A stretch of DNA of 62,342 nt, filler included, from Hausera hauseri (lineage: Eukaryota): assembly GCA_046269625.1 (NCBI GenBank). It is 11 parts of 11 records of this genome, joined end to end, with 100 filler letters (N's around TTAATTAATTAA, not from the genome) between each part and the next. Parts side by side here need not be neighbours in the genome. Positions count along the whole stretch, not along the records: positions 48,328 to 58,043 come from JBJURY010303277.1; 10 more parts are not named here. One strand, written 5' to 3'. Below, one piece after another: positions 33,362-62,342 of the stretch. Both the position numbers and the translations under genes were made by a program. Position 1 is the stretch's first letter; each line of letters begins with the position of its first letter. A model generated the notes under the pieces. It was given only the letters and a program-made list of their open reading frames with translations, made no database searches and was not told the origin of the DNA.

Positions 33362-33777
33362 GCACAATTATGATTAAATACGTTTAATCAACTTTTTCAT
33401 TACAATACAAAGCGAAGCAGAAAATACAAGTCCAATGAAAAAATTAATACGTTGCCGTTTTCGTTTCCACTCATCTTTGATACGTTTTACGAAGAGAAAT
33501 CGGACTATTAATTCAATTTACTATTGCCTGCTCATTATCCTCGTTTGTGTCAGCTCACATAGATGCTGAACGTCAAATACATGTGCAGTAATTATTTTAT
33601 GTCAATTTCTGAATTTCACTCTCAACGTACTCTTCCATGCAAGTTTTAATATGTAATATGGCTGATATGTTTATACCTACCTAAAAGAAATAAGTTATTG
33701 CATATCAATTTATTATGCAACTGTATTTAATATTTTTGATTTAAAGTTAACATTTACTTTAATTTGTTTAAATTTAG

Positions 33778-36700: not shown

Positions 36701-37419
36701 GGTTCATTGGCGTCTGCTACAGTTCTACATGCAGCTTGGTGTACGTGTCACACAACTGCATCGTGCAATCCGATTTGCCCAAGCTCCAATATTCAATGTG
36801 TACATAGATGGAAATTCGGAGAAACGAGGCGCAGCTTGTACAAAATTTAAAAAGGACTACAAGCTAAAAAACAATTCTCTCTACGGAAAAACGGCGGAGA
36901 ATCTGAAAAGCCACTCAATGTGCGCCTACGTAATATCAAAAAATGGCTGGTCACGTACACGAGTAAGGCACAGTTTTTGAAGTCAATGCAGATTGCCAAT
37001 GTATTGGTTGCGGTGCTGTTAAAAAGAGAAGAAGACGTTTTGGACCGGCCAAGTTACATCGGACAGGTGGTATTGGACTTGAGCAAGTTGCAGATATATG
37101 AGCTACAGTATCGCGATTTGGCACATTACCGGCAAATGTATGACAGCTGTGACATTAGTATAATTGCAGGTGCCACAGACAGTTTTTCCTGCGGCTGAAA
37201 AAAGACAATTGCGAACAGTTACAGCAGCAAATGCAGTTAAATAAATTACTGGACACGTCCAACTATCCACAGGATCATCTTTTGTACAGAAGGTCGATCA
37301 CTAACGAAATCGGCTGCTTCAAAGATAAAAGTGAAGGTCAGGTTCAGTATCGGGAATGGGTATTTCTACGGCCAAAATGCTATAGCCTTTTAATTGACGG
37401 TGGACCGAAAATCATTTAA
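33778..37419 (+). mobile_element. Polinton/Maverick-type pPolB, decayed; close relative of 15135-18770
   Basis: Colinear nucleotide similarity with contig 4; YADIE, DHDNFAGLYLGAAC, KGIFP, YLKLD, INNLY, KLKNNSLYGKT.EN, AGATDS, GCFKD, LRPKCY; truncated at the 3' end. Confidence 0.93.
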
Positions 37420-41439: not shown

Positions 41440-43499
41440 TTTGTATATTTCATGCCAATAAATATTTTTATCCTTCTATTTTTTCTTTCATCCTATTCAG
41501 TTTATAAATTTCACTTATAATACATTAACATTTATCACTAAGTAAAAACATTTATTAACGTACAAATCTTGATAAAAATATTACAAGCGATCCCACAAGG
41601 ATACTACACACAAGTAAAACGTTTCTCTGTCTTCATTTAAATTCTTCATTAACATTTGTTACACATATTGTTCGAATTACAAGTTCTACATAGTCTTCCT
41701 TTGATAAAAAACTTTGATTCTGTATTCCGTTTAGGAATTGAATACAATCTAATTTCACATTCCATATTTCTTCTGTCAGTCGCTTAATTTCACCTTCTAA
41801 ATCTAATTTGCAATGATACATATGGAATTAATTTAGGTGAGCAGAATTATAAAAAATTACCATTCGCTTAAATGATTATTCTAATTGGCTTTCCTTCCAT
41901 TTGACACAGTAATATTCATATAAACTTTGTAAAATTAAAACAAAATATACCGAAATTTAAACAAAAAAATTTTGGTACGAAATTCAAATTTTTAATTCCG
42001 CCTACAATCCATGCAGTGCACGTGCTTGTGTGTATCACTTTCATAACTGTGAGCCTCCTATCTCCACCATATTAATCGTGCCTGTGTGTATCACATTTTC
42101 TACCCCGTGATTCATCCGCGAACCACATCAATAGTATAAAAAGGCCGGTTCTGGATCACCCCCCGTGCAGCCAATACGAAGCGTGCTTGATGCGCACACA
42201 GGTACTGGGTTTATCAATTTGGCGACGGAGATTTCAAAAATCACACCGCCAAAGGCGCACGGTGCACCCCGAAAGCAGGCGAAGTGCACGAGAAAATGCG
42301 GATGTTAGAAGGAAGTGGTATACGGTCATGTGTGGCGCATAGAAATGATGGGCAAGTGATGGCGCATCGAATGAGGAAGGAACGAAGGCGATCAGATGAA
42401 ACACAGAAGCACGGGGTGATGGAAAAAAAGTGATCCAGAACGGGCCTATGCTTCATGAGAAACTGGGAAGCGTTATCGACCAACGGTTGATGGTCCATAA
42501 CCGTAGGCCTGTGAATAGGCGAACGGCACCGGAAAGAAAGGTACACGATGCACCGATGACGAAACAGACATCCATGTGTGTGTACTGATGATGGAATCCA
42601 GTATCGTGTAGTACAGGAAACGGAAGCCCATGACTAGCGCTATTTGATAATGGTGTTCGAATGGAAAGAACCCATTCCCGAACCGAAGTGCGATGAGAAA
42701 CGTCGAAAATCGGCAAAGGTATCCTTTTGAAACGGGAAAATATTTCATCGAAGTTCAACATAACCGGATTCAATCGATCGGTCGTTGGTTACTGATTATG
42801 GATATGTGTGTCGGAAAGTTTTTAAGCGCGTCCATCAACGTATAGCAAAGGAGAACGAATTTTCTATGTACATGTGAACTTTGAACACATGAACTTTTAT
42901 ACGGTTTTAGGTAAATACCTTCGAAAAATATTGATTTTTTACTTAGGTTTTATGGATGACTTTGTTCTATGTTACATAAAATTTGTTTCATATATTAAGA
43001 AAGTCATTGGATTTTTAATAACCATCATACATACACAAACATAAAATGTATATAAGGCATAAAAAAGTAAATTTAAGCAATATGATATCAATAATAAATT
43101 ATAGGGGTTATATACGTGGAACAGTCGCACATTTACAATTCAATAAATGGAAACCGCAATAATATGTACTGCAATTAGACAAATATAGTTTGGTTATTTT
43201 CGAAAATGGTAAATGTAGAGTAATGNNNNNNNNNNNNNNNNNNNNNNNNNNNNNNNNNNNNNNNNNNNNTTAATTAATTAANNNNNNNNNNNNNNNNNNN
43301 NNNNNNNNNNNNNNNNNNNNNNNNNTATGTGCAAAATCGATCTATCGATTACCGCCCCCCCGGGAGCTGGGCCAGAACAGCCATTTTTACACTACTGGTC
43401 GTTGTCCTGCTGACGCTATATCATCTGCCTCTCCTAACTTTTCTTGCACAGACTTTTTTCCTTGACAAAACTAATTCGAGTCGCACCTAGCTACAATTC

Positions 43500-46400
43500 C
43501 ATTTTCAATGGCTTAAAGCCAATCACACCACAGTTTCTTTCTTGCAGACGAACAGCTTGCTGCTTTTTCCAGCAAATATCAAGCAGAAAATTAATAATCT
43601 TGCCGATATACTTACCTCTTTTAATCATATGACATGCTGTATGAATCAGACCCTTCCATTGACAGCATAATACAAAAATACTTTAATGAACATGCTATCG
43701 GAACTCAGAAGCCGTCTGATTTCCTTAAAACCGCTATTTCTCAATTGAGTTCCTTAGGCGTCACTCCTACGATCAATGCCGATCGTCTTCGTCAGTATTT
43801 TTTTCTTCCTTGTCCACCTCTATCAGAGCGTTTTTTACTGTCGTAGACAATTCAACGGCACTCGAGAAACTCGCCTTACTGGCAGATAGAAGTTACGAAA
43901 TCTTACAATTAAATAGCTCACAATCAGTAGCTGCAGCAACCGCTCACACATCATCAAACACATAACATTTTATTTTTACAACAACTGCAAATGATGCAGA
44001 AAAAGTTCGACACATTCCAACAGGCAATTTCTGCGATTACAGCCCAACTTAGTGATTTATCTGTGCCTCGAAGAAGCAAAAACCGTGTCTCGCGTAATCG
44101 TAGCCTTTCCAGGGATTCCTTTCGATCCAAATCTCGAGATGGATGAATAATTTGTTTTTATCACAACAAATTTGGCAGTGATGCAAGGAAGTGTCTTTTG
44201 GGCTGTCGATTTTACGATGAACGTTATGCAGTAGACAACCAAATCTGCATTTATCACACAAAGCATCAGTCCAAGGCTAGGTCGTATGTGCCAGGATGCG
44301 AATATTATAAAAAGAATTCCAGTTTTTCTCCATCTTCTTCGCCTCCTCCTACTCATCATTCCTCTTCTTTTTACCAAAAAGCCTCAAAAACTAATAACGC
44401 CGCCAGATGCCACGGCACATTCTGGTGTAGGCAATATCGCTCAATCCTCTGGCCGTTTCAACATCGCCTCTGCAGTCTTTCTGTTGAAAGCTGAACTGTT
44501 ATTTGGAGACACCTCACACAGATTTCCTTATCGATTCAGGAGCTGCCTTTTCACTTCTTCCTTTGTCCTTCGCTCCTACATCTAACATGTTTCTCTCCTC
44601 CACTCTTTACTGCCTGTGGTCAATCCTTAAACATTGTACGTACCACAAAACTGTCCTTCACATTCTCCAACCTACCAAGGAAATTCTTTTGGAAATTTCA
44701 CATAGCCACTATTAGATCGCCCATAATAGGATCCGATTTCCTGACTGCATACGATTTGTTAGTCGACTGTAAGCATAGATGACGCCTGCGCAGAAACTCC
44801 GTTGCAAATACCAACAAATGCTCACCAGACAACCAGTCACACACCTTGTCCTCCTCTGTTCATTCAAATGTCAATTTGACATGCTGTTCATCGGCTAATA
44901 ACAATAAGTTTAATAATTCATCCACATTTTCAATTTCGTCAAGTGGGAACAAAACAATCTTGAAACGATCGGTTGAACCGAATGTAGTTAATGAAGTGTT
45001 TACTCATTCTACATCAATTACAGCCACTGACTCATCATTTTTATCGTTGAAATCCAATCTTAAATCCTACATTAAAACTTCTTGTTTCCGCACTCTCAAG
45101 AAGGACGTCAATTTCAAGCCGCATTCTACAACTTATCATTACATAGTTACCGAACACCAAAGACCTATCAGACAAAATGTCAGATCACTGTCACCTTGTA
45201 GGTGAAAAGCCGTTGAATATGAGTTCAATGAACTCGAAAGGCAGGAATTATTCGAAGATCCAAATCTCCAACGGCTTCACCTTTGCATATAGTGATAAAG
45301 AAAGATTGCACTTACAGACCATAGGGTGACTGTCTGCAGTTAAACAACCTAACAGCTCTGGATGCTTAGCCTTTACCTCTCATAAAGGACATACTGCACA
45401 GTCTTACCAATACTAATACGTACTCCACAATTTACTTGCATAAAGCTCATCATCATATTCCGGTTGCACCCGATGATATTCCAAAAACTGCTGTTACTAC
45501 TCCATTTGGCCTCTATGAATATATCTTTATGCCATTTGGTTTACGCAGTGCTTTCCAAACTTTTTAACGACACATTGATACCGTCCTCTAATGTCTTGAC
45601 TTTGCTCATCCATACATTGATGACATATTAGTTGCCTCCACATATGTTAAACAACATCAAAAACACCTCCGTATTATCTTTCACAGACTACATCACAGAA
45701 ATTTGCAAGTCAATTTTTCTAAGTGTCATTTTTTCAAAATTGTGTTAATTTCCTAGGCCACATGATCACTCCTAATGGCCACTCCCCACAACTGGATTGA
45801 TTACAACAATTGAAAAACATAATGCTGCCAACGACCACGACGGATACGAGGAGTTTCTTAGGCACACTCCGCTTCATCCATAAATACGTACCTCATTGTT
45901 CTGAGCTCATGGCACCTTTCGCACATCTTTCTTCAGGAAAGAAGAGGCAATTAATCCACTGGACTCCTGATTTAGTCGCCAAATTTGAACACTTATGCGA
46001 AGGCCTAAAAACCGTAGAAACACTGGCCTATAGGAAACTCAAAGCAGATCTTATACTTACAACCGATGCCTCTACCACAGCTACCGGTGCAGTGCTACAC
46101 TAGATTTCTAACGGCGTCGATGAATTATTAAAATTTTACTACAGGAAACTGACACAACTCGAAAGCCGTTACTCAGCATTTGACCGTGAGTTACTTGCAA
46201 TAGTTCTAGGAGTAAAACATTTCAAAGAGCTACTTCTTTCTCGTGCATTTGTTATTCAAACTGACCACAAGCCGTTCCTGCACATCATGTCGTTAAAATA
46301 ACCATGGCCGAGGGAAGAGCGACATATATCACACCTGTCTAAAGTTCAGTTTTGTTTTGGAATACATCTCAGGCACAGATAATTTGGTAACAGATTTTCT

Positions 46401-47985
46401 ATCAAGGTCGGTGGGCTCCATTATAGTTGAGCCGACTTTTTCATCCGAAGTCTTAAGGGCAAATCTACCGTCTGCTTACTTTCTTAGTTCCTTCAAATCC
46501 TTCGAGATCATTGATGGCATTGTTATTGATATGTCGAAAAACGATAATAAAAAGATCATTCTAGCACCACCTTTACAAAAGCCAGCTTTTGTTCATACGC
46601 ATTCATTCAATCATCCAGGTTCGAAAGCAACCTTTCGCCTACTTCAACGTCATGTAGTTTGGCAATCAATGCGCAAAGATGTACAGAGCTGGGTTAAAGA
46701 ATGCGTAGCCTGTCAAAAATACAAAATAAACACATACCTTAAACCTCCGCTTTACCATTTTCCCTGTACATCAAGCTTTCATACAGTTCATCTTAATCTC
46801 GTTGGCCCTTAACTCCTTACTATAATGGATCGCGCTTCTCGCTGGCCTGAAGCCGTTCCTTTTCGTTCAATGAACACTGATTCAGTAGCTGACGCCTTTA
46901 TAAAAATCTGGATCAGTCGTTCTGGTTCCCCACGTTACATAATAACGGATCAAGGTCAACAATTTAAATCAGAACTCTTCACATGGCTTGTAAAACACTT
47001 GGTGATATCCCATTTCCATAGAACTCCATTTCATTATAAAGCAAATGCCATCCTTAAAAGATTCCATCGAACAATGAAAGTTTCTTAAAAAATCTTAGCT
47101 GACACTCATCGTAAGTGGATGTCAATTCTACCATTAGTTCTACTAGGTTGGCGCAACAAACCTTCTATCACTACCGGTTGTGCTCCAGCCGAAGCACTCT
47201 TTGGGACTCCAATTCGGATCTTATTTGAACTTTCTGATCTCGACGACAACCCCACAGACGAAAACATTAGTGCAGCGCAATCTCACTTCGTCGAGGTCAG
47301 CTCAGATTTATTCTGTCGTCTCTTTAACAACAATAAATCCTATATTCCATAGTATTTATACTCCGCCAAGTTTGCGTGGCTTAAGGATCAATCGCCTACA
47401 GGTTTTCGACCTCAATATGTTGGTTTATACAAACTGATGAATCTCTAATCTCATACGCATTTCGAATCTGAAGCCCGCTTTCTTCACTGATGACAATCTA
47501 GATGCCAATTTTACCTCCAACTCAAACTCAACTTCTACTCCTACGGATTTTCTAAATAGCTTTGTGCCGTTGCAGCAATCACTATTCTGTCACACTCAAG
47601 CATCATCATGTCTTCCATTCATCTCACCCCCTCTCCGTCATCATGCTCATTACCTTCTTTACTTCCTTTACCTACATCGACTGTTTCATCACCTCTAACT
47701 GCATCGCCTTTTTTGCTTGACTCGTGTTCTCTATCATCTCCATCATAAAATATCACTCAACAGCCTAACACAAACCAATCGAGTAAAAAACGCAAAGTCA
47801 CTTTTAGCACCTACAGCAAAGAAAAGTTCTTTGATGGTACACAACGCCTAACTCATACTAAAACCGAATAGGCTCCAAACATTGTTTCTTGTTGCGACTC
47901 AATTTCCTTATACATATTATCTTCATCATTCTTTTTTCGCCTTTACATAGCTTCTTTTCTGCCACGGCGGGTGATATGGTGCCGC
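43500..47985 (+). mobile_element. Ty3/Gypsy element of CsRn1-like lineage, decayed (gag-PR-RT-RH-IN, PPT)
   Basis: Gag QKPSDFL, two CHCC-type motifs (CFYHNKFGSDARKCLLGC; CIYHTKHQSKARSYVPGC), protease LIDSGA, RT PFGL/YIDD, TTDAS, FDRELLA, integrase RWPEA/TDQG.QF, S/T-rich tail, G-rich tract at ~47965 followed by an LTR-start-like TATGGTGCC. Confidence 0.92.
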
Positions 47986-48449
47986 GGGCGCGGGCGCGAA
48001 TCGTGTTCTCATATCAAAAGAGGCAGCAGATTACGAGGATTTTTGACCTTTCAAGGTCGGTGTTCAAGGAGAAAATCATTTGCTCAAAATTGATCAGTAA
48101 TTTAGTGGTTAGATGTCTTGCACTTCGTTCCAAATAAAAATTTGCATCATTTTACACTTCTACAGTGTTCTCTTCCAGCAGACAAAAGCATATAGACAAA
48201 AATTTCGTCTCAAGTCAAAATTTACGTNNNNNNNNNNNNNNNNNNNNNNNNNNNNNNNNNNNNNNNNNNNNTTAATTAATTAANNNNNNNNNNNNNNNNN
48301 NNNNNNNNNNNNNNNNNNNNNNNNNNNGAAAAAATCCTTAATCTGAATACAATTAAATTATTTTAATATTTTTATTATTTTAATTTACATATTAATTTTT
48401 TTTTGAAAAATTTTATTTACGCATAGCTAAGACAGATTTACCCCACTAT

Positions 48450-51400
48450 TTAATCCAATCGCCTTTTACGCTCGAGGATATGGGATTGCACGTAAGGCAG
48501 ATCCTGACAAAATCCTCGCGAACGAGTAAAAGGGCGATTACGAGTATCTAAATCATCGACCACAACAACGTCCCCACTAACATTTAAATTATGAGAGTGT
48601 ATATCGGAACTTGTCCCGGAGTGTACAGGAGTGTTTACGACACTTGTGTCAATGATATCGTCCCCATGCTCGTCGACAAAGCCTTCGAAGTCCAAGGCTC
48701 GATCTGCAAACCCTTCAAAATCACGGTTTGGGTCCTCGAAACCTTCGAAGTCTTGACTTAAATCTGAGAAACCACCAAAATCTTCCCATTGTAAAGACGA
48801 AATATCCGACTCTAAATCATCGGAAAGAGAAACCCAGTCAACCAATTCCGAGAAACTTACTTTCTTTGGACCTCCAGGTGACTCTGGAGACCTCTTCCCG
48901 GAGGGAAAAATCGGCGGAAACGCGATGTCATATCTCCGCAGGAAGGAAGAAAGATCAGGTGATCCTGTTGGAGTCAACGGAATTGTTTCGCTTTGACTGG
49001 AACCGCTGAAAAGCGTAAACGTCTTCTGAGGACTGGTAAGATCTGCAATAACCGTTGTTAACTGGCTAATAGTGCGCAAAATACTCTGCACTTTTGCTAG
49101 GGACGTACGTGTCTCTTCATCCATTACAAAACCTTCGAAATCATCATCATCCTCTGACTCCAAAGATGGACCGACGTCACGACGAATATACTCGCGTTGA
49201 CCATCGATGAGAGGATCCGATGTAGTGGAACTGGTTATCACCGGTACTTCTTGCATAGCCTTGGCACTGAACTCTTCATGCTCCTGCAAGTACATTGGAG
49301 GAATCTGCCAACGCTTGACCTGGCTATGATGAACCCGGTAAACGCGACTTTCCTGAAGAGATTGAACTTCGTAGGTGACCTTATTTGCGTTTGCCCTGAT
49401 GATCTTCAAAGGGCCCAAATACCTTGGTAACAATTTATTTGTAACCAGGTCACCAGGAAATGGTCGCTTCATGCCCACTAGATCACCGACTTTAAAAGTG
49501 GTAAACAAAGGATGACCAGGCTTCCAGTAAGATTCAACGTTCTGCACTGGAAGGCCAAAAGACGATTTGTGGGCCTTTTCCATAATGCTTTCGCACGGCG
49601 TCAACAACGTCTGGGCATGCTGAGTATGGTTGTATGTAACCAGTATATGGGGTAATTTAGTATCCCAGTTAGAACTGGTTGCTAGCGATACTCGCAAATA
49701 CTGAAGAAGCGTTCGATTTACACGCTCGACTACCCCATTGGATGAAGGTTTATATGGTGTTGTAACTACATGTTTTATGTTATACCTATCTAATAAGTTT
49801 TGGAATTCATTTCCAATAAATTCTTTCCCATTATCAGTTAATAACCTCTCGGGCAGTTTTGGCAATAAAGGCAAAACATAACGTTGCAATGCCAGCGCTA
49901 CCGTAGAGGATTGCTTATTACGCAATGGGATGGCAGATACCCATTTAGAGTAATGGTCCACCATAACTAATAAATACTTATTCCCTAAACTTGATACCGG
50001 CAATTGCATTAAATCAACTGCGGTAAGCTCAAAAGGCCTATAGGTAACAATCTTGAACATCGGAGGGACAGCCAACATATTCGATAATTTGGAAGACTGG
50101 CACACATGACAAGTAGTTGGCACGTCATGACAAATCTTATATAAAGACGGATGCCAGATTTGCTTCTCCAATAACGCGGTTAACTTGTTCCTCCCTAGGT
50201 GAGCATATTCCAAATGGCTTTTTACCACTACATCTACGGCAAGTGAAAAAGGTACTACAGCGGGATGATTACCCTTAGAAGTTTTTCTACGTAAAATATT
50301 TACACAAAAATTGTAGTCCTTTTTGAACCTTAAGAAGGACTTCATCTCCCCTGATAAACGTCCTTCAATGCGCCTGGGGTTTTTAATAAATTTCACGAGG
50401 TTCCGGACGGTCCGATCCGCGAACTGAGCTTGCCGAATAGTGTCATCCGACAGCATGGAATCCTCGAACAGGATTTCCTCATCCGCTGACTCGTCCAGTC
50501 GGATGCACATTAACTGGATATTATTCGATACCGATACCAATACTTGTGATTCCGATTCCGATCTCGTTAATTCCGAGTTAGATTCTCGTACCACCGAAAC
50601 CGATACCTCCCCACCAGACCCGAACTCGGTTTGACCGCTAAGGTTAGGCTTATTACCTGTTGATTCTTCTTTTAACTCAAACGACTCATCAAGGAGATTA
50701 AAAGAAACAAAATTTCCCTCAATCTCCCCATGATGTCGTGTGTCTTGTAGTATACAAGGTTCGGAGTCTGGTGAAGTACCCAGTAATAAATTGTAATGAA
50801 CACCCCCCAAACACAATAATCTACACAATTTTTCGCCTGTGATTGGGCCGAATCTCAATGGTTCACCACTGCCGTAGTATACCCAAATCCTAGAATTATA
50901 TAAATTCGCGAACGCTTCGATGGCTTCGGTGATGGGTAATTGGCCTCCTTGCTTCATTAGCTTGAGCAATTTGGTCACCCCCACGTGATTTCGTCCGCTC
51001 AATAAGCCATACTTTTGCTTATGATCCAGAAGCTCTTGGATAGCTTCCTCCCGCAACTGGAAATGCTTGTCCATCGCCCCAAATTGCCAAAGCGCTAAGC
51101 ACATAAACAGAGAATCACCTCCTCCGGGAACTTTATGTTCAAAACATCCCGGAGGTAACTCGACCTCGGGAGGCGACGTGGAAATCTCTTGTGCTGGCGT
51201 CACTGGGGACCTAGACAAGGCATCCGCGACTACGTTTTGTCGGCCCGGAATATACCGAAGTTCATAATCGATATCGTTGATTTCTTCCAACGTCCGGGCG
51301 ACACGCTGATTTACGAGAGACATACTGTTTAAATAGATCAAGGGTTTATGGTCAGTATGAATAATGACCTTAATACCATACAAAAATGGCTTAAGGGACT

Positions 51401-53648
51401 TAACCGCCCATCGAATAGCCGCGACTTCCTTTTCGGTTGTACTATATTTTACCTCGGCTTTCGAAAAGGTTGTGGAGATATACGCGATCGGCTTGAGCTC
51501 CCCTTGTTGCTCCTGAGCAAGGCAGGCTCCCGCTCCTACGTTGGAGGCATCGACAAACAACATGAGCGGTGGCGCATCAGGCTGACGATTGGGATAAACC
51601 AACAAGGTGGGATTGGTTAACTCCTTTTTCAGCTGGTCGAACGCATTCTGACATTCTAACGTCCAGCTTAAAGTCCGCTTCCCCAAAATCTCAAACAACG
51701 GCTTCGCTATCTCTGAACAACGCGGAATATGCCGACGATAAAAATTAACCATGCCAAGGAATTGGCGTACTTTCCGTATCGTAGTTGGAACGGGAAAGTC
51801 TTTAATTCCTTGTAGGCTTTTCTGTAACGGGATCATTCCGCTTTCCGAAACAATATGGCCCAGGTATTGTACCTCTTTCCTGAGCAAAAACGTTTTACTG
51901 GGCTTTATCTTAAACCCAGTATTGGAGAATGCTTCTAGCACCTTTTCTAAAATAATTAAATGCTCCTCAAACGTTTTGCTGACTATTAAGACGTCGTCCA
52001 GGTACACCATGGCTTCCGTCCACGGAATATGAGATAGAGCGTACCTCATGCCCCGTTGGAAAGTAGCGGGTCCATTTTTAACCCCAAAAGGCATCCTAAG
52101 AAATTCCCAATGGGACAGGGGAGTAGTGAAGGCGGTTAGCTCAATGCTATCCTCCTCCATCTCTACTTGATAGTACCCCTTGACCAAGTCAAGGGTAGAA
52201 AAGTACTTCACCCCCTGTAAACTAAACAGCATGTCTATCAAGTTGGGAATAGGGAAACTATCTCCCTTCGTGATCTTGTTGAGTTCCCTGTAGTCAATAC
52301 AAAGTCTCATCGATCCATCCTTTTTCTTGATAGGCACTACAGGAGCGGAATATGGAGATTTGCTCAGTCTATTGATCCCTTCGGATTCCAACTTTTTGCA
52401 GCTATCTTCGACCTCGCGCAAAATCGGGCCTTGTAATCGGCGGACGGGCAACTGCACGGGAGTGTCATCGATAATTTCAATTCGGTGCTTTATGACCGAC
52501 GTGCATCCAACATCCCCATCGTGCAGGCTTAGAGCATCCGGATATTTTAACAACAGAGTCAGAAGCTGATCCCGCTGATCCTCGGTTATATCCGAATCCT
52601 CAATTCTGAAGTCAGAATTCAATTTGTCCACCGACCAAACGACTCCTTGTTCGGCATTGTGAGTTTCTGGCAACTCTACGACGTTTGCCTGAACCGATTC
52701 CGATTCCGTGAATTCAATAACTCCGACTCTTTGACCCTTTTTGCATTTTAAATACCCTGGACCTTCATTGTAAGCCAGGATATAAGCCCGATCTTCTCGG
52801 AGCTGCAAAATTGCGCATGGCGAAACGAATTTACACTGTGCATCACATGAGAATATTGAAATCTTATCCCTATCTAAAAATTGGTTAGGTATAACTATTT
52901 CTACTAATTTACCCATATAAGGACCCAAGGAAAAAGATTCGGCTAAAAAGCAACTAATACTTTCTTTTTCCTCCAGTCGTGTATCAAACGCGACTGGTTG
53001 TACGAGATTGCCTGTACGAAGGACTAATTCTCGCTCCCGCAAGTCAGGTAACAAATGTTCTGACTGCAAGATGTCAAATCCTAAGATAATATCATGATGA
53101 GTAAGCTCATCCGGTATTATCACAAAAGTGTGAGCTTCCAGAATATAAGACGCTGAAAAACCCAACTGTAAATCCACGGCCCCTATAATAGGATATCTTA
53201 CTCTCCCTATGCCGCTAATACTGCGATATATCGTAGTCCTAAGAGGAAATAATCCAGTTTCCAACTGATCATAACAACGACGAGTGATCAGGCTCACAGT
53301 GGCTCCTGTGTCGACGAAGGCAACAAACGAAACGTTTGGTTGGTCAGGCACACGCACCTTAACCAACAAGGCGTCCGACGACAATGCTGTCAACCCAAAC
53401 TCAATGCTGGGCTGCCCATCTAAATTGTCGACTTCACCTGCTTCTTCATTGTCGACGGGAATATCAGACGGGTGATCCGCTGACTTGCCTTCTAAGAAGT
53501 CTAAATCGGCCGCTGTTAAAATAGGATCGATTCCTAATAGATCCTGGATAATAGGTATCCGTTCCTCCGATGAGGGCGATGTCAAGACATCATTGACCTC
53601 ATCCTGCTCTGTGTCGAGGACTTCTGACACAGGCGGACTCAGTTTCCC
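48450..53648 (-). CDS. pol: Pol polyprotein: protease, RT, RNase H, OTU-like domain, integrase, acidic tail (expressed by -1 frameshift)
   Basis: FVDTGA, CIDYR.LN, MPFGVKNGPATFQ, YLDD, VDAS, TDHKPL, ADALSR, H..HLG..CHVC, VDL, TDNGKEF, NG.VERVN; the ORF track frame is open from 53771. Confidence 0.96.
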   Translation of the reverse strand, partial: GKLSPPVSEVLDTEQDEVNDVLTSPSSEERIPIIQDLLGIDPILTAADLDFLEGKSADHPSDIPVDNEEAGEVDNLDGQPSIEFGLTALSSDALLVKVRVPDQPNVSFVAFVDTGATVSLITRRCYDQLETGLFPLRTTIYRSISGIGRVRYPIIGAVDLQLGFSASYILEAHTFVIIPDELTHHDIILGFDILQSEHLLPDLRERELVLRTGNLVQPVAFDTRLEEKESISCFLAESFSLGPYMGKLVEIVIPNQFLDRDKISIFSCDAQCKFVSPCAILQLREDRAYILAYNEGPGYLKCKKGQRVGVIEFTESESVQANVVELPETHNAEQGVVWSVDKLNSDFRIEDSDITEDQRDQLLTLLLKYPDALSLHDGDVGCTSVIKHRIEIIDDTPVQLPVRRLQGPILREVEDSCKKLESEGINRLSKSPYSAPVVPIKKKDGSMRLCIDYRELNKITKGDSFPIPNLIDMLFSLQGVKYFSTLDLVKGYYQVEMEEDSIELTAFTTPLSHWEFLRMPFGVKNGPATFQRGMRYALSHIPWTEAMVYLDDVLIVSKTFEEHLIILEKVLEAFSNTGFKIKPSKTFLLRKEVQYLGHIVSESGMIPLQKSLQGIKDFPVPTTIRKVRQFLGMVNFYRRHIPRCSEIAKPLFEILGKRTLSWTLECQNAFDQLKKELTNPTLLVYPNRQPDAPPLMLFVDASNVGAGACLAQEQQGELKPIAYISTTFSKAEVKYSTTEKEVAAIRWAVKSLKPFLYGIKVIIHTDHKPLIYLNSMSLVNQRVARTLEEINDIDYELRYIPGRQNVVADALSRSPVTPAQEISTSPPEVELPPGCFEHKVPGGGDSLFMCLALWQFGAMDKHFQLREEAIQELLDHKQKYGLLSGRNHVGVTKLLKLMKQGGQLPITEAIEAFANLYNSRIWVYYGSGEPLRFGPITGEKLCRLLCLGGVHYNLLLGTSPDSEPCILQDTRHHGEIEGNFVSFNLLDESFELKEESTGNKPNLSGQTEFGSGGEVSVSVVRESNSELTRSESESQVLVSVSNNIQLMCIRLDESADEEILFEDSMLSDDTIRQAQFADRTVRNLVKFIKNPRRIEGRLSGEMKSFLRFKKDYNFCVNILRRKTSKGNHPAVVPFSLAVDVVVKSHLEYAHLGRNKLTALLEKQIWHPSLYKICHDVPTTCHVCQSSKLSNMLAVPPMFKIVTYRPFELTAVDLMQLPVSSLGNKYLLVMVDHYSKWVSAIPLRNKQSSTVALALQRYVLPLLPKLPERLLTDNGKEFIGNEFQNLLDRYNIKHVVTTPYKPSSNGVVERVNRTLLQYLRVSLATSSNWDTKLPHILVTYNHTQHAQTLLTPCESIMEKAHKSSFGLPVQNVESYWKPGHPLFTTFKVGDLVGMKRPFPGDLVTNKLLPRYLGPLKIIRANANKVTYEVQSLQESRVYRVHHSQVKRWQIPPMYLQEHEEFSAKAMQEVPVITSSTTSDPLIDGQREYIRRDVGPSLESEDDDDFEGFVMDEETRTSLAKVQSILRTISQLTTVIADLTSPQKTFTLFSGSSQSETIPLTPTGSPDLSSFLRRYDIAFPPIFPSGKRSPESPGGPKKVSFSELVDWVSLSDDLESDISSLQWEDFGGFSDLSQDFEGFEDPNRDFEGFADRALDFEGFVDEHGDDIIDTSVVNTPVHSGTSSDIHSHNLNVSGDVVVVDDLDTRNRPFTRSRGFCQDLPYVQSHILERKRRLD
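53609..53648 (-). promoter_or_regulatory. Programmed -1 ribosomal frameshift signal
   Basis: G GGA AAC slippery heptamer (53648-53642) immediately before the gag stop, in the correct phase to enter pol; followed by a CTGTGTC/GACACAG stem (53632-53609). Confidence 0.85.
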
Positions 53649-55366
53649 TGCCGATTTGTGCAATTTATGCCCAAGTGAGGCCCTTGACAGAAGGGGCATT
53701 TGGGCTCGTCGGGGCGGTCTCTCGACGGACAGTCGGGAGCCAAATGTCCCCGCTCTTTGCAAATCGCACACTTATGAAGGGCAATGTAGCACTCTTCATA
53801 AGTGTGCCCACGCTTACCACAATAGTGGCACAAGGGTCGCTTGTGGCACTGTCCCATTTGGTGGCCCTTCTTCTTACAGAAGGAACACTTCTGGGGCGAA
53901 CCCTGCGGCTGGCTCCTTGGTGGGTCTCGCGGAGGCGAGTTCGTCGGCGTATAAACACGACGAGGAGACTGCCGCTGAGACTTCGGGCTCGGCGGAGTCC
54001 CATTCTTCCTCTTGGGCGGACTAGGCGGCGGGCTCGGCTTCTTCCTCTGCCCCGTCCTATTTGGCGACTTAGGAGGCGAAGCTGGGGCATCCGACCTCCT
54101 ATACGCAGAATTATAATAATAATTATTTCCACTGTTTGTCTTCGGCCTCGCACCTTGAGCAGCTTTGGCATAAGAACGGGGAGGAGTCGGGTACAAGGGA
54201 GCAGGCAATGGGGCTGATGGCCCAGGCAACACTTGATATGCCTCCGGTTGTTGAGCAACCCGAGGTTGGTGCTGCCCATAACCACAAGAACCACACTGGT
54301 TGCACCAGCCCCCTGCTGGCGTCACCGCGGCCAGATCTATGACCTCGGGCGCATGATTCATCCCTGTTGGAGGGTGTGTCAATGACGGCATATTCGAGTC
54401 CACCAAGGACACGAATCTCTCCCAAGACATCTTCCTTCCCATGGTCCTTTCATAATCCCTGCGAGCGTTTTCCACATGAAAACGGATTGCAGGGGGGACA
54501 CTCGCCAAAAACCGTTGACGGACCAACGGTAAGTTCTCAACGTCGCACTTGGGAAGCGCTCGTTGGGCTAATCCCAACAAGCGAATGGCGAACACCGACA
54601 TGGGTTCGTCATCATGTCGAGCTGCTTCCAAGAAACGTGTGGAGTGCATTTCCTCCTCACGGTCCAACTCGTCCTGAGACCACTGAAGAAGAATTTCCTT
54701 CATCTCTTCATAAGATGCAACGGATCTCAGGGCCACGAGATAAACTTGGAGGACAGGACCATCTAAATGCTGTCGCAAGAGATGCAGGTAACCGGTGGTA
54801 TCGTCACCAGAATACATCTCCTGACAATGTGCTTCGAATCGCCGGAGGAACGCAAAGACAGGTTCTCCACTCTCCGGCGAATAAACTCCCAAAGGTTTGG
54901 GTCGGCGTCTAGGATTTATCATCGATGCCTGGAGTAACTCGGACATACGCTGGACAAGAATCTGGTTTTGTCTAACCAGATCGTTGACCAGAGCTGCCCA
55001 ATCTCCAGGTGAAGACGCTTGAGGTGTGCTTACAGGTGGCAAACCCGAAACTTGAGGCATTTGTTGCGGCGTTGACGTCGCAGTCGTCAACGGCGGCAAA
55101 TTACAAGACGCTGTTGTGGTCATAGTCATTTGATTGTTCAAATATACTTTATTATTATTGTCACTTGGATTTGGCCAGTTTATATTAGACATGAGCATTG
55201 ATGCTTGCAAATTATCAGGATTAGTAGTTATCAACCGCTGTGTATAGGGGTTAGTAAGTTGGGGAGGCTTAGCCTCCACTTGTGATGATTCGGCGGAACG
55301 CATAGGCAAATTGAGCTCATCCACACTATCATTTAGCAAATTCGTTGCTCCTTGTACACCGTCCAT
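53639..55366 (-). CDS. gag: Gag, 575 aa, four CCHC zinc knuckles
   Basis: Capsid-like region (FLRRFE, RHDDEPMSVFAIRL), P/S/R-rich linker, then CSFCKKKGHQMGQC, CHYCGKRGHTYEEC, CAICKERGHLAPDC, CPFCQGPHLGINC. Confidence 0.95.
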   Translation of the reverse strand: MDGVQGATNLLNDSVDELNLPMRSAESSQVEAKPPQLTNPYTQRLITTNPDNLQASMLMSNINWPNPSDNNNKVYLNNQMTMTTTASCNLPPLTTATSTPQQMPQVSGLPPVSTPQASSPGDWAALVNDLVRQNQILVQRMSELLQASMINPRRRPKPLGVYSPESGEPVFAFLRRFEAHCQEMYSGDDTTGYLHLLRQHLDGPVLQVYLVALRSVASYEEMKEILLQWSQDELDREEEMHSTRFLEAARHDDEPMSVFAIRLLGLAQRALPKCDVENLPLVRQRFLASVPPAIRFHVENARRDYERTMGRKMSWERFVSLVDSNMPSLTHPPTGMNHAPEVIDLAAVTPAGGWCNQCGSCGYGQHQPRVAQQPEAYQVLPGPSAPLPAPLYPTPPRSYAKAAQGARPKTNSGNNYYYNSAYRRSDAPASPPKSPNRTGQRKKPSPPPSPPKRKNGTPPSPKSQRQSPRRVYTPTNSPPRDPPRSQPQGSPQKCSFCKKKGHQMGQCHKRPLCHYCGKRGHTYEECYIALHKCAICKERGHLAPDCPSRDRPDEPKCPFCQGPHLGINCTNRQGN

Positions 55367-55479
55367 TCCACTTGTATTCTACAAAAAAGGGACGACAGTA
55401 AAAGGAAAAATGAAAAATGAGGATGGGTGCTTCAAGCACAATTAAAGAATGTGCAAAGTGCACGGCAGCGAAGAGCGGG

Positions 55480-55497
55480 AACTACGCTCTGCTACCA
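55480..55497 (-). promoter_or_regulatory. Primer-binding site, initiator Met tRNA
   Basis: TGGTAGCAGAGCGTAGTT, 4 nt after the LTR end, is complementary to the ..CTCTGCTACCA 3' end of animal tRNA-iMet. Confidence 0.88.
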
Positions 55498-55501
55498 AAT
55501 A

Positions 55502-55780
55502 TGTAAAAGGAGGGTGTCGTGTCGTTGGTGTTGGTCGTGTCGTGTGGGTGTTATGTCACCACGTTAGTAGGGAGGATTGTGTTCCTATCCTTACTAAGCA
55601 CACGCTCTGGTTAGCTCGGGTAAAACCCTACCAAGGTTAAGCAGGTATTCCTGACAACGCACGCAAGTTCTCCCTGTTAATCCTATCGTTCCCACTCTCG
55701 CATGCAGCTCTAATAGCACTTTTACTCTCTCTCAACTCCCCACTATTGCGCTCAATTTTCCCCTTTACTATTCACTTACA
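55502..55780 (-). repeat. LTR (collapsed single copy, 279 bp)
   Basis: TGTAA...TTACA termini on the minus strand, preceded by purine tract GGGGAATAAAAAG (55794-55782) and followed by the PBS. Confidence 0.78.
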
Positions 55781-56481
55781 ACTTTTTATTCCCCAAACGT
55801 ATAATTACTAATTTATTATTAAAGAGATTATATAATGGAAACCGAATTATTTACCTGCATTATAATATTAACGAAAACAAACTTCGGATCAAATGTCTTC
55901 GTGATCTTGAAGCCGTATGGGGCCCCTTGACTTCACAATATGATCCAAGATATTTCTTGTGTTTTCCATCATTAATACCATGCCGAACATGAAAATATAA
56001 AACAAATCAATACATGTTTCGGCTAGGGGTTACAACTAATTAATTAATATAAATAATAAAAACATATATCAAATATATATATCAATTAGATATCATGACT
56101 TATATGAAATAAATTCATACCGGGTGTTTTACCCGTTGACTGAATAGTCGATTTAATTAGTTTCCCGTATGGAATTTTTATTTACTTTGAAATGCCTGTT
56201 TGTATTTTATTTATAATTTTATTATTAAAAAGAAAAAAAAAACAATTAAAAAAAATTCATCTCACCATTATATAAAGAAATATAAAAATAAACAAAATTA
56301 GTTTGTTTCCGAGATTTCCCAGAGAAGGGAATAAAATCAGCAACTCCCCTGGGCGGACCGGACTGGAACCTCACCAATGGCCGTCCCCCTGCACTCCTCC
56401 CCACCCGCCGAGTAACGGCGGACCAAGTCGCAGTGCCGCAGGGGACTCCAGTGAGTGTCCGCTCCAGGTGCTGGATAGCTA

Positions 56482-57957
56482 TTACTCCCAGGCATCCCAG
56501 AGAAACTGACGCGCTTCTCCGGGAGCTGGGTAGTAATCAAAGGCGGCCCAGTAGCCCTCTAAACGTGAGACCGCCGAATTGATTTCTTCACGTAGCTCTC
56601 CCCAAAGACGTGGAGGAATGAAACCTGGGGGCGCCATACCTCGGGTAGATGAATGAGGCCTACGGTGTGGTAGTCGGGGAGCCCCCGAAAATCTGGGGAA
56701 TCTCCCGGGTCCGACTCGACGGAAACCCCTGCGCCCCCGACCACGGAAACCTGGCTGAGCACCGGGATAGGCTGCAGCCGCGGGAACTGGAGGGCGAAAA
56801 CCCCTTCCCAGCCCCTGAAGTTCCGGCAATGTCATTGGGCCAGGCTGACCCAAAATAACATCTCCAGATGTTCCTCTTTGAGGAGAAACTATCGGCTCTG
56901 TTGTCTCAGGGGCCGAGCGTTCGGTACCCCTGGCAGATGGAACTCGCCTTCGTTGCCGACCCTTCCCCTTGTTAGTCAGTCCCCTCCCCCTTGTGGTGTT
57001 AGTGCCACGTGGCGGATTCGCCACCCCGGATGGACCAGGTAAAGAATCAGAGAGATTTGGAGGGAGACCTCCCAACTCCTGGGAATCAACGGGCTCATCA
57101 GGGAAATGTAGGCGGGATTTAAGAGAGGCCCTCGACGAAGCGGCTCTATCCGAAGAGGATGAACTCTGGCGTGACGCCTGGGTTTTAATACCCAATCGGC
57201 GACTCACTCCAAGCTGTGAAAACAGCTGATTGAAAATGAGCCGGCAAGCCAATTTCGTAGGGTGGACCCCATCCCGTAAATAGCCTTTTCCTCGAAGGGT
57301 ATGACTGTGCCCGGAGAGAAAATCATCCAGAGCACGGTGATAAGGAGCGTGTCTACCAAGGATGGAAGACCCACTAAGACGCTCCCCTTCGGTGATACAT
57401 CCCCCGATCAGCTGTGAGGTAGGATCTATTATATCCAAATACCTCTTAACGGTGGATGTATAAAGTTTTAGTTCATCTAAATCAGGCATCTCTTTGTATT
57501 TTTGTTTAATCGCCGACGGCGCTCGACGAAGATCTCGCTGGTTCTTAAAGTTCAAGTCAAGAGGTGGTGGTATAAAAATATACACCTTAGCGTTGGGAGC
57601 TATTACTTTGACTCTTGACTTGAACGTAAAGTAATCCAGGACGAATGTGTCTAAATTAAAGTCCGGGTTAGGCCGTATGGCAAAATAGTTTCTTTTGCTA
57701 TCAGGGCCGCTTAAACTGTGCCTTTGAAATGCCTCCGTTATCAGGGAGAACAACACGACATGCGTGATGTCATCCTTGAGAACTTGGGGTAAAGAAATTA
57801 CCAGTTGTTTCAAGGAAGCCCCGGGATAAGGAGCAAAGGTCACTTGCGACTCTGATATTCCATGGTCTTTGCTGGAGAAGGAATCTCGCAAACAGCTAAC
57901 CCAAGAATGACCGATGATTAAGATCTGAAAAGACAACATAAAATCTGGTAAGAACAC
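56482..57957 (-). CDS. ORF3: SGNH/GDSL hydrolase domain plus R/G/P-rich disordered tail
   Basis: Block I ILIIGHS, block II YPGA, block V DGVHP; block III Asn absent. The first ATG is at 57939. It lies ~130 nt after the pol stop once the contig is circularised. Confidence 0.85.
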   Translation of the reverse strand: MFLPDFMLSFQILIIGHSWVSCLRDSFSSKDHGISESQVTFAPYPGASLKQLVISLPQVLKDDITHVVLFSLITEAFQRHSLSGPDSKRNYFAIRPNPDFNLDTFVLDYFTFKSRVKVIAPNAKVYIFIPPPLDLNFKNQRDLRRAPSAIKQKYKEMPDLDELKLYTSTVKRYLDIIDPTSQLIGGCITEGERLSGSSILGRHAPYHRALDDFLSGHSHTLRGKGYLRDGVHPTKLACRLIFNQLFSQLGVSRRLGIKTQASRQSSSSSDRAASSRASLKSRLHFPDEPVDSQELGGLPPNLSDSLPGPSGVANPPRGTNTTRGRGLTNKGKGRQRRRVPSARGTERSAPETTEPIVSPQRGTSGDVILGQPGPMTLPELQGLGRGFRPPVPAAAAYPGAQPGFRGRGRRGFRRVGPGRFPRFSGAPRLPHRRPHSSTRGMAPPGFIPPRLWGELREEINSAVSRLEGYWAAFDYYPAPGEARQFLWDAWE

Positions 57958-58143
57958 TAAGATCCCGAAAAAATCCTTAATCTGAATACAATTAAATTAT
58001 TTTAATATTTTTATTATTTTAATTTACATATTAATTTTTTTTTNNNNNNNNNNNNNNNNNNNNNNNNNNNNNNNNNNNNNNNNNNNNTTAATTAATTAAN
58101 NNNNNNNNNNNNNNNNNNNNNNNNNNNNNNNNNNNNNNNNNNN

Positions 58144-61100
58144 TTCACTCCCGCAAACAGTACTTTACACCATGTAGTTACACAGCATCAACGACCAATA
58201 TTCCAAAGGATACGGCATATGTCACCTCGTCGTAGACAGGCCGTAGAAGCCGAATTTCTTAAACTAGAACGTTCCGCCATAGTACGCCGTTCCAAATCTA
58301 CTTGGTCATCACCTTTATACGTTGTACAAAAAAGGACGGTACTTTTAGACTATACGGTAACTACGGACAGCTGAACAACTTGACTATCATGAATGCGTAC
58401 CCTTTACCACTCATCAAGGATATCTTGCATCGTCTTAATTCAACCACCATCTATTCGACTATTGATTTAGCTAAGGAATAGCATCAAATATCTGTAGCAC
58501 CCGAAGACATAAAAAACTGCTGTAACTACTCCTTTTGGTCTCTACGAATACTTGTTTATGCCATTCGGTTTGAGGAATGCCGCACAAACTTTTCAGCGCC
58601 ACATTAATTCAATTCTTTTAGATTTATCGTTTACACATCATTATATCAATGATATTCTAGTCGTTTTATCTTCGGCCAAACAACACTAGGAACACCTTCG
58701 CGCAATATTCCAACGCCTTAACCACCATAATCTCCAAGTCAATTTTGACAAATTCCATTTCTTCAAAAATCGCATTAGCTTTTTAGGCCACGTTATTACA
58801 CCAGACGGTCATTCTCCCCAACCAGACCGAGTCGAAGCTCTTAAAAATATAAAGTTGCTACGAATAACCACTGAAATGTCAGTTTCATTGGTACACTACA
58901 CTTTGTAAATATATATGTACCATATTGCTCCGAATTGACAGCATCATTCGTACACCTAAGCGGTGGCAAAAAACATCAGCCAATCCAGTGGACACCTGAA
59001 TCGATCGACAAATTTGATAAGCTACGCGAGGGAATTAAGACCGTCGATATACTTGTTTTCCCCAAGCCTGATGCAGAACTTATCCTTACTACAAACGCGT
59101 CAGCCATTGCAGTAGGCGTTGCAGTACAATGGAAAAAATCAACCACTAGAATTTTTCTCTCGCAAGCTGACATCCAATGAAACCAGATATTCAACGTTCG
59201 ATCAAGAACTATTGGCCATCGTTCGCGTTTTAAAGCATTTCTCACACCTACTTGTTGCTCGTCATTTTACTATACAAACCGATCACAAGCCCTTACTTAA
59301 CATCATGGCTATGAAACACCCTTCCACACACCAAGAACGCCAGATATCATACTTATCGACATTTAACTTCGACATTAAACCTATTAACGGGGTTAACAAT
59401 TTGGTTGCCGATTTTTTATATAGGTCGGTTAGTTCGATTAATTTTTTACCGATTTTTACGCAAGATCAACTTCAACAGAAACAGTCACCTCAGGACATGT
59501 TTAATTCTTTTAAGTCTTGCACAATCGTTGACGGCGTGGCTTTAAACACTTCAAAACTAGGCAATTCCGAAATAATTCTAGCATCATTATTGCAAAAGCA
59601 AGTATTTCACAGCGTGCATTCATTACACCATCCCGGTGCTAAAGCCACTTTTCGTTTACTCCATCGACAAGTAATTTGGCCGTCAATGCGTTCTGATATG
59701 CAGGCATGGGTTAAGGAGTGTGTGGCTTGCCAAAAATACAAAACAACTAAGCACTTAAAGCCATAACTGCTCCACTTTCCCTGCACATCGCGTTTCGAGC
59801 CCGTGCATATTGACATCGTTGGCCCTCTTCCCCTAGATAACGGTCATCAATTCATTCTTACCATAATGGACCGTTCCTTGCGATGGCCAGAAGCCATCCC
59901 TCTGCGGAGTACGAACACCGATAGAATAGCTGACGTTTTCATTCGTACATGGATTAGCAGATTTGGATCACTCCACAGTTTGAATCCAACCTGTTCAAAT
60001 CCCTTGTTAAACGATCGTGAATCCATCACATACACACTACGTCTAACCATCCCCAATTAAATGGCCTCCTAGAACGCTTCCACCGAACATTGAAAACGTA
60101 ACTAAGAATCCTTTCATAGTCTAACACCAGTCGGACGAATCTTCTTCCGTTTGTTCTGCTCGGCTGGCGGAACACTCCGTCTATTTCTACGAGATGCTCA
60201 CCCACTGAAGCCTTATTCAAAGCTCCAGTACCATCATTTTTCGAACTAACTGCCCTAGACGACACCCCTACAGATGAAACGATACGGGCGGCCCAAATCA
60301 CTTCGTTACGGTCAGCAAAGATTCGTTCTCTAGGATACTTCACAAAGACAAAACATATTTACCCGAAAACTTGTATTCGGCAAAATTCGTATGGCCAAAA
60401 AATCAGACGCCGTGCGGTTTTCAGCCGCGGTATCTGCAGCCCTATAAACTGATACAGCTGCATTAACATAATGCTATTATCTCTAAAGACGGCAAAGAAC
60501 TTACAGTACATATTACCAACTTAAAGCCCGACTTCTTTGTCGACGATACTTCACCAATCGACACGTCAACCTCTTTCCTCACTTTTACACTTCCTGTTGT
60601 TCCTTTATCTGTTGCTACATCAGTTTCACCTCCTCCTTCTGCTTCTAGTTCTACTTCATCATTCTCCACACCTTGTACTTCTATTTCTATCTCTTTTTCT
60701 TTCTCTACCACTCCGTCTGTCTCATCTTCTACTTCTACTCTTCCGCCTAACACAATTCCAATTTCTACTTCAATTTTCGTCTCTCCTCCTTTATCCGCTA
60801 CTTCACCTTTTGTCACTCCTTCGCCTTCTAACACTCTCTTGAATACCTTTACCCTTCTGTCTCCAACAATCTCTCCCTCCTTCACATTCTTCTTCTTTTC
60901 GTTCTGACTCGTCTTTGCACAACGCAACACTCACAACAAAATCTGACAATTTTTCCCCAACTTCAACCTCTGCAAGCAAACACACCGCATACAGACAAAA
61001 CATGCAGAGTCATATTTAGCAAGTATAGCAGGGAAAAATCAGTAGAAGGCACTCAATGTCTTGTTCACACTAAGATCAACTGATACAGACACTTTTCGTT

Positions 61101-61171
61101 TAGCGATTTTTTCTTTCCGTCTATGTTGTTCTTTATAGCTTTCACTTTGCCACGGGGGTTGATGTGGTGCC
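58144..61171 (+). mobile_element. Ty3/Gypsy pol (RT-RH-IN), decayed; same family as 43500-47985
   Basis: WSSPL, MPFGLRNAAQTFQR, FDQELLA, TDHKPL, HHPG..CVACQ, HIDIVGPLP, RWPEA, S/T-rich tail, GGGGG tract then TGTGGTGCC (LTR start ~61163). Confidence 0.93.
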
Positions 61172-61494
61172 CACTGCGGCCGGTGCCCTTTGGCCTATTT
61201 GGTCGGACGCGGCCGGGCGTCCGTTGCCGCCTCGTCGGATCCATAGTCGCGCCTGATTTCCCGACTCGAAATTTCACAATACGATCCACCGGATTTGATA
61301 CTGGAAAGTTTTGATGACGTCAGTGAAGAGAATAAAAAACCGATAAAAATAAAGCTGTTCAAATTGTCTAATGATGAATACAGTAAATCTTCGAGGAATC
61401 CTTAAAAAGCCAGGTGAAAATTATGTTCCAACGACTGTGTGCTTCGACGAAAAAAGAAACGATTTTGAACAATTAATTCATAAATTCGTCGAAT

Positions 61495-62342
61495 ATGCAA
61501 GATGATGAAGAGGTGGAATTAAGTCAAAAAATTCTACATCTTTGTGCAAACCTGCATGATCAAGATCCAGGAATTTTGCAAGTCAAAATCATCAAATTTA
61601 TCATAGTATCAGAATGGAATGTGCATTTATTCTTACTCTGTCCCACAGAAATATGGAAGTTGTCTGCAAGGCACTGGACGATAAGGTATTTGACCGTGAG
61701 AAGCGATTTACCGTGAAATCGTCGGTATTTGAACGAGTAATTCATGATAATACCTGTCTACAGATACAAGACCTCCCCATAGAAAGAATATCACAAATGG
61801 AACAACTGACCATTTTGAAATGGCGATCATTTCTCTGTGTACCCATTGTTAATCAAGCCGACTGTACAGTTAGCGCCTTGGTTTGCCTTATAAATAAAAT
61901 GGGATCTGATAGATTTTCCGAAAAAGACATTTTCATAACCAAATTAGTGTTTCGGTATACTGCAGCCGTGTTAACAAGCAGCGTTTCATTTCAAAACAAA
62001 AGAAAACTCAAAGTTCAGATTGAGACTATGATTCAAGTGGCAATGAATATTTTCCGTAAGCTGGAAGATTTGACAGTACTGATGAAGGAAATCATAACGG
62101 AAGCAAAAAAGCTTACGGATGCAGAATAATGCTCTGTATTTCTCGTCGACAATGACTCGAAGGAGTTAGTTGCAAAGGTTTTTGATGGATTGACTACAGT
62201 TTCCGATACTTGTCAACATCCAAAGGAGATATAATCCCAACTAACCAATGTGTGGCAGGCCATGTTGCATGTACTAAAGAGATGCTAAATATATCAGATG
62301 CCTACAGTTACCCCTTGTTTTATCGGAAAGTTGATGATGAAA
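61495..62342 (+). pseudogene. PDE2A: cGMP-stimulated phosphodiesterase 2 GAF-A/GAF-B region, intronless and disrupted
   Basis: KIL.LC..L.D.D...LQ.K, LCVP+V, YT..VLTS...FQ...[44 protein letters not shown]; frameshift at ~61610, stop at 62127, frameshift at ~62230. Confidence 0.88.

Follow-up and report, generated by a model that had tools for sequence, protein, structure and literature searches.

FxGF motifs in the integrase tails of a Ty3/Gypsy clade: candidate ligands of LEDGF-type host proteins

How animal LTR retrotransposons without chromodomains choose their insertion sites is largely an open question, and the locus described here puts it in a specific form: what might five copies of an acidic DF[E/G]GF motif do in the tail behind an integrase? 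The window, that is, the whole stretch of DNA analysed (62,342 nucleotides from the Hausera hauseri assembly), consists of contigs joined by N spacers, and the motif-bearing contig occupies positions 48328-58043. The two ends of this contig overlap by 77 nt, from which we infer that the assembler collapsed an LTR element into a circle; such a contig holds one LTR only, and paired LTRs and a target duplication are not visible in it.

The element and its integrase tail

The features of the element are the following.

48450..53771, minus strand: pol frame, stop to stop, 1773 aa, a single unbroken frame of 1773 codons
48450..53771, minus strand: order within pol of protease, RT, RNase H, OTU-fold insert, integrase and tail (Pfam and model)
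50772..51140, minus strand: OTU-fold insert between RNase H and integrase (model pLDDT 95)
49344..50252, minus strand: integrase with H2C2 zinc finger, DDE core and SH3-like C-domain (Pfam)
53639..55378, minus strand: gag frame, 579 aa, with zinc knuckles (zf-CCHC, E 0.003)
55486..55508, minus strand: likely 3' end of the LTR and primer-binding site (from sequence)
56482..57996, minus strand: third ORF, 504 aa, in env position, between pol and LTR on the circularly collapsed contig

By its sequence, the element has an intact Ty3/Gypsy pol, with domains in the order PR-RT-RH-IN and gag upstream, the two frames overlapping by 133 nt. Within the integrase, Pfam gives PF17921 for the zinc finger (aa 1174-1228, E 3e-7), PF00665 for the core (aa 1245-1342, E 3e-17) and a weak PF24626 match for the SH3-like domain (aa 1444-1476, E 0.03); it finds no chromodomain after the integrase in this pol, which thus lacks the mark of a chromovirus. 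We take the primer-binding site at 55486-55508 to pair with initiator tRNA-Met, and candidates for the LTR start lie near 55780 and 56033. The third ORF gave no Pfam match and no homologue among proteins of 416-2000 aa, and its single-sequence model reached a pLDDT of 35; its C-terminal half is Arg/Gly/Pro-rich, and its N-terminal half contains GHS and DGVHP motifs that, judged by eye, presumably resemble those of an SGNH hydrolase.

Among 20 clusters of relatives examined, three (P0047, P0023 and P0361) include proteins of the isopod Armadillidium vulgare, and none names another organism. Since these three join the window element's own branch (support 96, FastTree), their sequences make a crustacean host likely. 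A contig of public run X1 spans 48443-49480 with 0 differences, X1 being possibly the window's own source and so non-independent. This locus occurred in one sequencing run, with no RNA run among the matches listed; the reads of that run held no clear LTR-host junction and hence gave no insertion sites. No related loci were found in viral contigs.

The window also holds other elements. A BEL/Pao-type element lies in pieces at 25913-29937 on the plus strand, with DUF1759, protease and integrase, and a CCCH zinc-finger pair in its gag-protease region. Two decayed Gypsy pol copies, at 43326-48227 and 58144-62342, are ~70% alike over 211 nt, and the contigs at about 15071-18557 and 33714-37412 have long repeats in common (71-89%).

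The tail itself contains the features below, with the motif copies placed by frame translation.

48453..49283, minus strand: acidic, Ser-rich integrase tail, 277 aa, likely disordered judging from composition
49128..49151, minus strand: motif copy 1, DDDDFEGF, aa 1541-1548, with DFEGF from aa 1544 at 49128-49142
48768..48782, minus strand: motif copy 2, DFGGF, aa 1664-1668
48738..48752, minus strand: motif copy 3, DFEGF, aa 1674-1678
48708..48722, minus strand: motif copy 4, DFEGF, aa 1684-1688
48678..48692, minus strand: motif copy 5, DFEGF, aa 1694-1698
48465..48527, minus strand: conserved end motif from TRSRG, aa 1749-1769, then basic residues (tail comparison)

An initial annotation of this DNA had placed five DF[E/G]GF motifs behind the integrase; we recovered all of them at those positions, in a 277-aa tail on the minus strand, and the exact 10-aa period described for the last four copies (aa 1664, 1674, 1684 and 1694) holds. 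PFTRSRG (aa 1747-1753), which had been read as the terminus, turned out to be followed by 20 more residues and to belong to the longer conserved end motif. No domain was recognized in the 277-aa tail (no Pfam match below E 0.08 and no usable ESM Atlas match), and a comparison with PDB sequences gave one match at E 0.3, which was disregarded. When the tail was shuffled 20,000 times, the number of FxGF motifs reached at most 2 (49 times) and never 3, so the five copies are not due to chance. The four 30-nt repeat units have just 11-18 of 30 bases in common, and pairwise codon differences among the five motif copies are 25 synonymous to 4 non-synonymous, which argues that it is the protein motif and not the DNA that has been kept and excludes recent slippage. 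No other open frame of more than 150 codons in the window contains FxGF.

Read with the residues that follow, the repeats are DFEGFED, DFEGFAD and DFEGFVD, and within 20 residues around each copy there are 5-10 D/E residues. The acidic or phosphorylatable linker adjoining FxGF that characterizes ligands of TFIIS-N-terminal domains (TNDs) is present at the window copies. Copy 1 (DDDDFEGF) also has an amphipathic helix predicted downstream from the residue pattern, and P0001 and P0023 carry a similar acidic motif plus a helix-like stretch at the same place; the other four copies are without it.

Conservation of FxGF among related tails

A first homologue search gave 104 proteins. The alignment of the best 54 extends through the SH3-like domain, and in a quick tree, where 12 of the remaining 50 served as outgroup, they group with the window element in a single clade (support 99). 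Of these 54 relatives, 46 have FxGF in the tail, with 82 copies compared with 1.09 after shuffling (maximum 5 in 1000), and the motif ranks first among all 3-residue patterns in the tails, ahead of the TRS motif. Upstream of the tails, 77,766 aa of the same proteins hold 13 FxGF compared with 6.5 after shuffling. In the Aedes protein P0097, a DDFEGF was set aside for its location between RNase H and integrase.

A second search, returning at least 150 proteins of which 139 were new, served as replication; after exclusion of 27 (24 with tails shorter than 150 aa and 3 with an incomplete match) and of one near-copy, 111 were kept, one of which (P0357) is a long-branch outlier. FxGF was found in 63 of the 111 tails, in 102 copies compared with 1.86 after shuffling (maximum 6 in 500), so that the excess over shuffles is ~55- to 75-fold across the two sets. 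At position 3 of F-x-x-F in the second set, Gly occurs in 102 cases and any other residue in at most 5, and at the end positions Phe occurs in 102 and any other residue in at most 9. Both Phe residues and the Gly are strict in the relatives.

The tails that carry the motif are otherwise mostly unalignable: in the first set, 74 of 1485 tail pairs align over at least 80 aa, so FxGF persists in sequence that has been turned over around it. The initial annotation had offered lack of conservation in relatives as grounds for giving up its proposal, and we find the motif in 110 of 166 tails. Given this pattern, we regard FxGF as a real, selected motif on sequence grounds, kept in two-thirds of a large clade. 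It is absent from the other 56 tails, and 30 gains or losses are inferred on the FastTree phylogeny (46.7 with shuffled labels), which indicates that the motif is dispensable in many lineages. Outside the clade, 2 of 50 other hits have FxGF past the integrase, a count that depends on crude boundaries and includes ~20 rows that are near-copies of one element.

The five copies of the window element are the highest number among the 166 tails, and its four-copy array with an exact 10-aa period occurs in no other of them. The multivalency suggested at the outset describes this element well but is not the rule, as 54 of 109 motif-bearing relatives have a single copy.

The TRSxG-type end motif is commoner than FxGF, being found within the last 70 aa of 127 of 166 tails, and independent of it (81/110 FxGF-bearing and 46/56 FxGF-less tails). 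After it come V, LP, VQ and LE[YR]K at conserved positions, a sequence that might possibly serve as a nucleosome- or histone-binding motif. The CHZ histone-binding motif (PF09649) was sought in 30 proteins, the last 116 aa of the window pol among them, and none gave a match even at E 10, in a search where HMMER filters drop weak matches.

Likeness to LEDGF ligands and a candidate host reader

Known LEDGF-ligand motifs have the order helix-linker-FxGF, and a longer form of them is [ED]xExFxGF. According to PMC9987994, TND-interacting motifs have an obligate helix and an acidic linker of 8-16 residues that is often CK2-phosphorylated; FxGF is optional among them, yet it plays a part peculiar to LEDGF and HRP2, none of whose known partners can do without it. 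The initial annotation had suggested a ligand of LEDGF and of TFIIS-N-terminal domains at large. The link to LEDGF fits this literature and the wider claim does not, since a role unique to LEDGF and HRP2 in the account of PMC9987994 points to LEDGF-type readers rather than to all TFIIS-N-terminal domains. The FxGF partners of LEDGF listed in PMC11910589 include POGZ, JPO2, ASK and IWS1. In the fly kinase JIL-1, a 44-aa region required for binding to JASPer contains DFxGFDE, nearly the same as the window repeat; the interaction requires the LEDGF domain of JASPer, whose PWWP domain brings the JIL-1 complex to H3K36me3 gene bodies (PMC6877644). Extracts of PMC11910589 add that dP75 is able to remain on chromatin without H3K36me3.

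With the TND-interacting motifs of KMT2A (MLL1), JPO2, POGZ, IWS1, ASK and JIL-1, the present tail has in common a strict FxGF in an acidic, Ser/Thr-rich and, judging from composition, likely unstructured setting and, as in known TND-interacting proteins, several copies per protein. It differs in that the motif sits on the integrase of a mobile element, and in that neither the window's copies nor most relatives have the helix anchor. We treat it as a candidate member that resembles LEDGF-type TND ligands in sequence.

The flanks add to the likeness. At position -1 of 189 motifs, D/E account for 43% and S/T for 32%, with basic residues nearly absent, and around the first 87 motifs acidity is 2.6 compared with 1.3 and CK2-type sites number 1.07 compared with 0.66, in agreement with the description of TND ligands in extracts of PMC9987994. 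The form seen most often in the relatives is FSGF in a Ser-rich context, where acidity would depend on phosphorylation. Of the first 87 motifs, only 2 fit the longer form, [ED]xExFxGF.

In metagenome contigs, a motif scan found 77 loci. PWWP and LEDGF domains occur together in 14 of 19 long frames scanned (metagenome, plankton-like transcripts), and a search with one such frame returned 53 proteins, including a Tigriopus californicus homologue (P0194) that matches the human PSIP1 and HRP2 structures. By these sequence matches, crustaceans have LEDGF-type proteins; those found are copepod-like stand-ins and not the gene of the element's own host. The equivalents of human residues 359, 360, 363, 399, 402, 403 and 406, which we take to line the FxGF pocket of LEDGF, are hydrophobic or basic as in human in most of 29 aligned rows. 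In the crustacean-type proteins L004, L024, L058 and P0194, an SRSGRxIKPKKF-like motif separates the PWWP from the LEDGF domain, and a further conserved region lies immediately N-terminal of the latter.

Other integrases offer three comparisons. Lentiviral integrases bind LEDGF through their folded catalytic core, and short targeting modules in integrase C-tails include those of Ty5, with Sir4, and MLV, with BET proteins. Extracts of PMC9987994 describe the lentiviral use of LEDGF as hijacking, and the Ty1 integrase C-tail has a short targeting module for AC40 (PMC7459421). The likeness to lentiviral integrase with LEDGF/p75 and HRP2 is that the integrase is likely tethered to active gene bodies through a PWWP-TND reader; here a linear copy of a host motif, in place of the folded core, would be a convergent route. 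The Ty1, Ty5 and MLV tails likewise evolve fast behind the integrase core and carry a short motif that binds a host protein. Motif and partner are others there, and the present motif is repeated up to five times and often gained or lost within the clade. With chromovirus integrases and their C-terminal chromodomain, the element shares a Ty3/Gypsy pol and a likely chromatin-directing element past the SH3-like domain. It differs in having no chromodomain, and none is found in the 54 first-set relatives (precomputed Pfam lists), the eight without the motif included, so that an action of the motifs in place of one, as suggested earlier, is no more than a possibility.

In a fly study of 2023, 46-56% of de novo LTR insertions fall within H3K36me3 peaks; its authors suggest LEDGF as a possible cause and state that an interaction of LEDGF with LTR integrases is not backed by any data (PMC10018349). 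In the literature searched, which is mainly open-access, FxGF is nowhere reported for the integrase of a retrotransposon, and all the literature on FxGF and LEDGF among the matches listed concerns host proteins.

Proposed role and its alternatives

We propose, with a probability of roughly one half, that the five DFxGF copies bind a host LEDGF/JASPer-type TND and would so keep the integration complex tethered to chromatin that is transcribed and H3K36-methylated. Taken singly, a LEDGF-type partner is the part that we hold to be rather probable on sequence likeness, and site selection as the purpose of the motif is about an even chance. The tail would stay on the mature integrase, the two Phe residues of a copy would enter the shallow pocket of the LEDGF-type domain, and the acidic or phosphorylated flanks would meet its basic patch. 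Several copies on a multimeric intasome may add avidity, which in this element could compensate for the missing helix anchor. The PWWP domain of the reader would then hold the complex on transcribed chromatin, and integration would be biased towards active genes.

The alternative that survives best, and that we nevertheless consider unlikely, is a real host-binding motif for another pocket, that of TFIIS, Elongin A, MED26, PNUTS or an unrelated acidic-aromatic peptide reader, since two Phe and one Gly carry little information. It draws on the helix data. We defined an upstream anchor as hydrophobic-x-x-hydrophobic-F, 6-17 aa before FxGF, a pattern chosen from the helix-linker-FxGF order of known ligands and after a test for downstream helices. 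Of 189 motifs, 17 have the anchor, compared with 4.1 when permuted (maximum 11 in 2000) and with 2 for its downstream mirror; they lie in 13 tails, those of P0047, P0053 and P0046 among them, some of the 13 being kin, and this excess speaks for the LEDGF-type reading. On the side of another pocket, the anchor was absent from all five window copies and from 172 of the 189 motifs, and downstream of FxGF a helix pattern is commoner than expected (58 of 183 motifs, compared with 21 upstream and a background of 14%), which the order in known ligands does not predict. A Trp motif, [DE]W[DES], frequently with VS after it, occurs in 35 of 110 FxGF-bearing and 4 of 56 FxGF-less tails (P0001-P0363), which suggests a larger module; the window tail has DWVS at about aa 1644. 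Two named alternatives were tried and rejected. The hydrophobic motif of AGC kinases, a PIF-pocket ligand with the consensus FxxF-[S/T/D/E]-[F/Y], was sought as FxGF[STDE][FY] and occurs at 0 of 189 motifs, and the gamma-adaptin-ear consensus, [D/E]FGx-hydrophobic, has 3 matches in 166 tails, DFGGF being the sole fit among the window's five. Against any other pocket also stands the unique tie of FxGF to LEDGF and HRP2 in extracts of PMC9987994.

Less likely again is that the motifs bind a LEDGF/JASPer-type protein for another purpose, either as a decoy that displaces, for example, a JIL-1-like kinase, or by recruiting the reader to the chromatin of the element and so resisting silencing. Fly JIL-1 needs JASPer for its stability, and expression of some transposons is supported by the complex (extracts of PMC6877644); dP75 supports piRNA-pathway genes, and transposons are derepressed upon its loss (extracts of PMC11910589). 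An array this dense and free of anchors would fit the role of an avid competitor. However, Pol is likely scarce, given the 133-nt gag-pol overlap and the low frameshift yield that would go with it, and this fits a tether better than a sponge; moreover, tails behind integrases are the known site of targeting modules, as in Ty1, Ty5 and MLV.

We consider it improbable that the motif serves the element itself, be it by helping Pol to fold, in packaging, in docking of the protease or through contact with Gag or the OTU-fold insert. FxGF is largely confined to one clade that shares this insert (53 of 54 first-set relatives), with just 2 of 50 outside hits bearing it past the integrase, but the tails differ freely in the number of copies (0-5) and in their position, and the insert is kept where sister lineages have no motif, which a host-facing motif fits better. 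In Foldseek the model of the insert matches OTUD3 (4bou, TM 0.82, E 4e-7) and DUBA (E 2e-7). The site that we take to be that of the catalytic Cys in OTU enzymes is Ser in the window element, Ser in 43 of 54 relatives and Ala in 1, the pattern being unmatched in 10, and the His is invariant in the 36 aligned; the insert is likely an inactive or altered deubiquitinase. OTU domains have been described for Ginger1 and Helitron (PMC2836005, in extracts), and no description of one in a Gypsy pol was found in the literature searched. A neutral low-complexity repeat, to which the exact 10-aa array peculiar to this element might point, is very improbable, being contradicted by the ~55- to 75-fold excess in two sets and by the synonymous-heavy divergence between copies.

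We return to tethering through a LEDGF-type reader. Short targeting motifs in integrase tails and the lentiviral use of LEDGF are known already; FxGF on a retrotransposon integrase is apparently new. In its broadest form, to which we give slightly less than even odds, a crustacean Gypsy clade would mimic the host's FxGF dock in zero to five copies and ride LEDGF/JASPer into active genes, in a second, independent hijacking by integrase that is linear where the lentiviral one is folded. Within the clade, a specific motif comes with a specific candidate partner and with motif-less sister families as natural controls. Should some other protein be the partner, the motif is still the sign of a contact with the host that has not been described before and that two-thirds of a large clade have kept; if the proposal is true, integrases would have hijacked LEDGF on two occasions, through different means.
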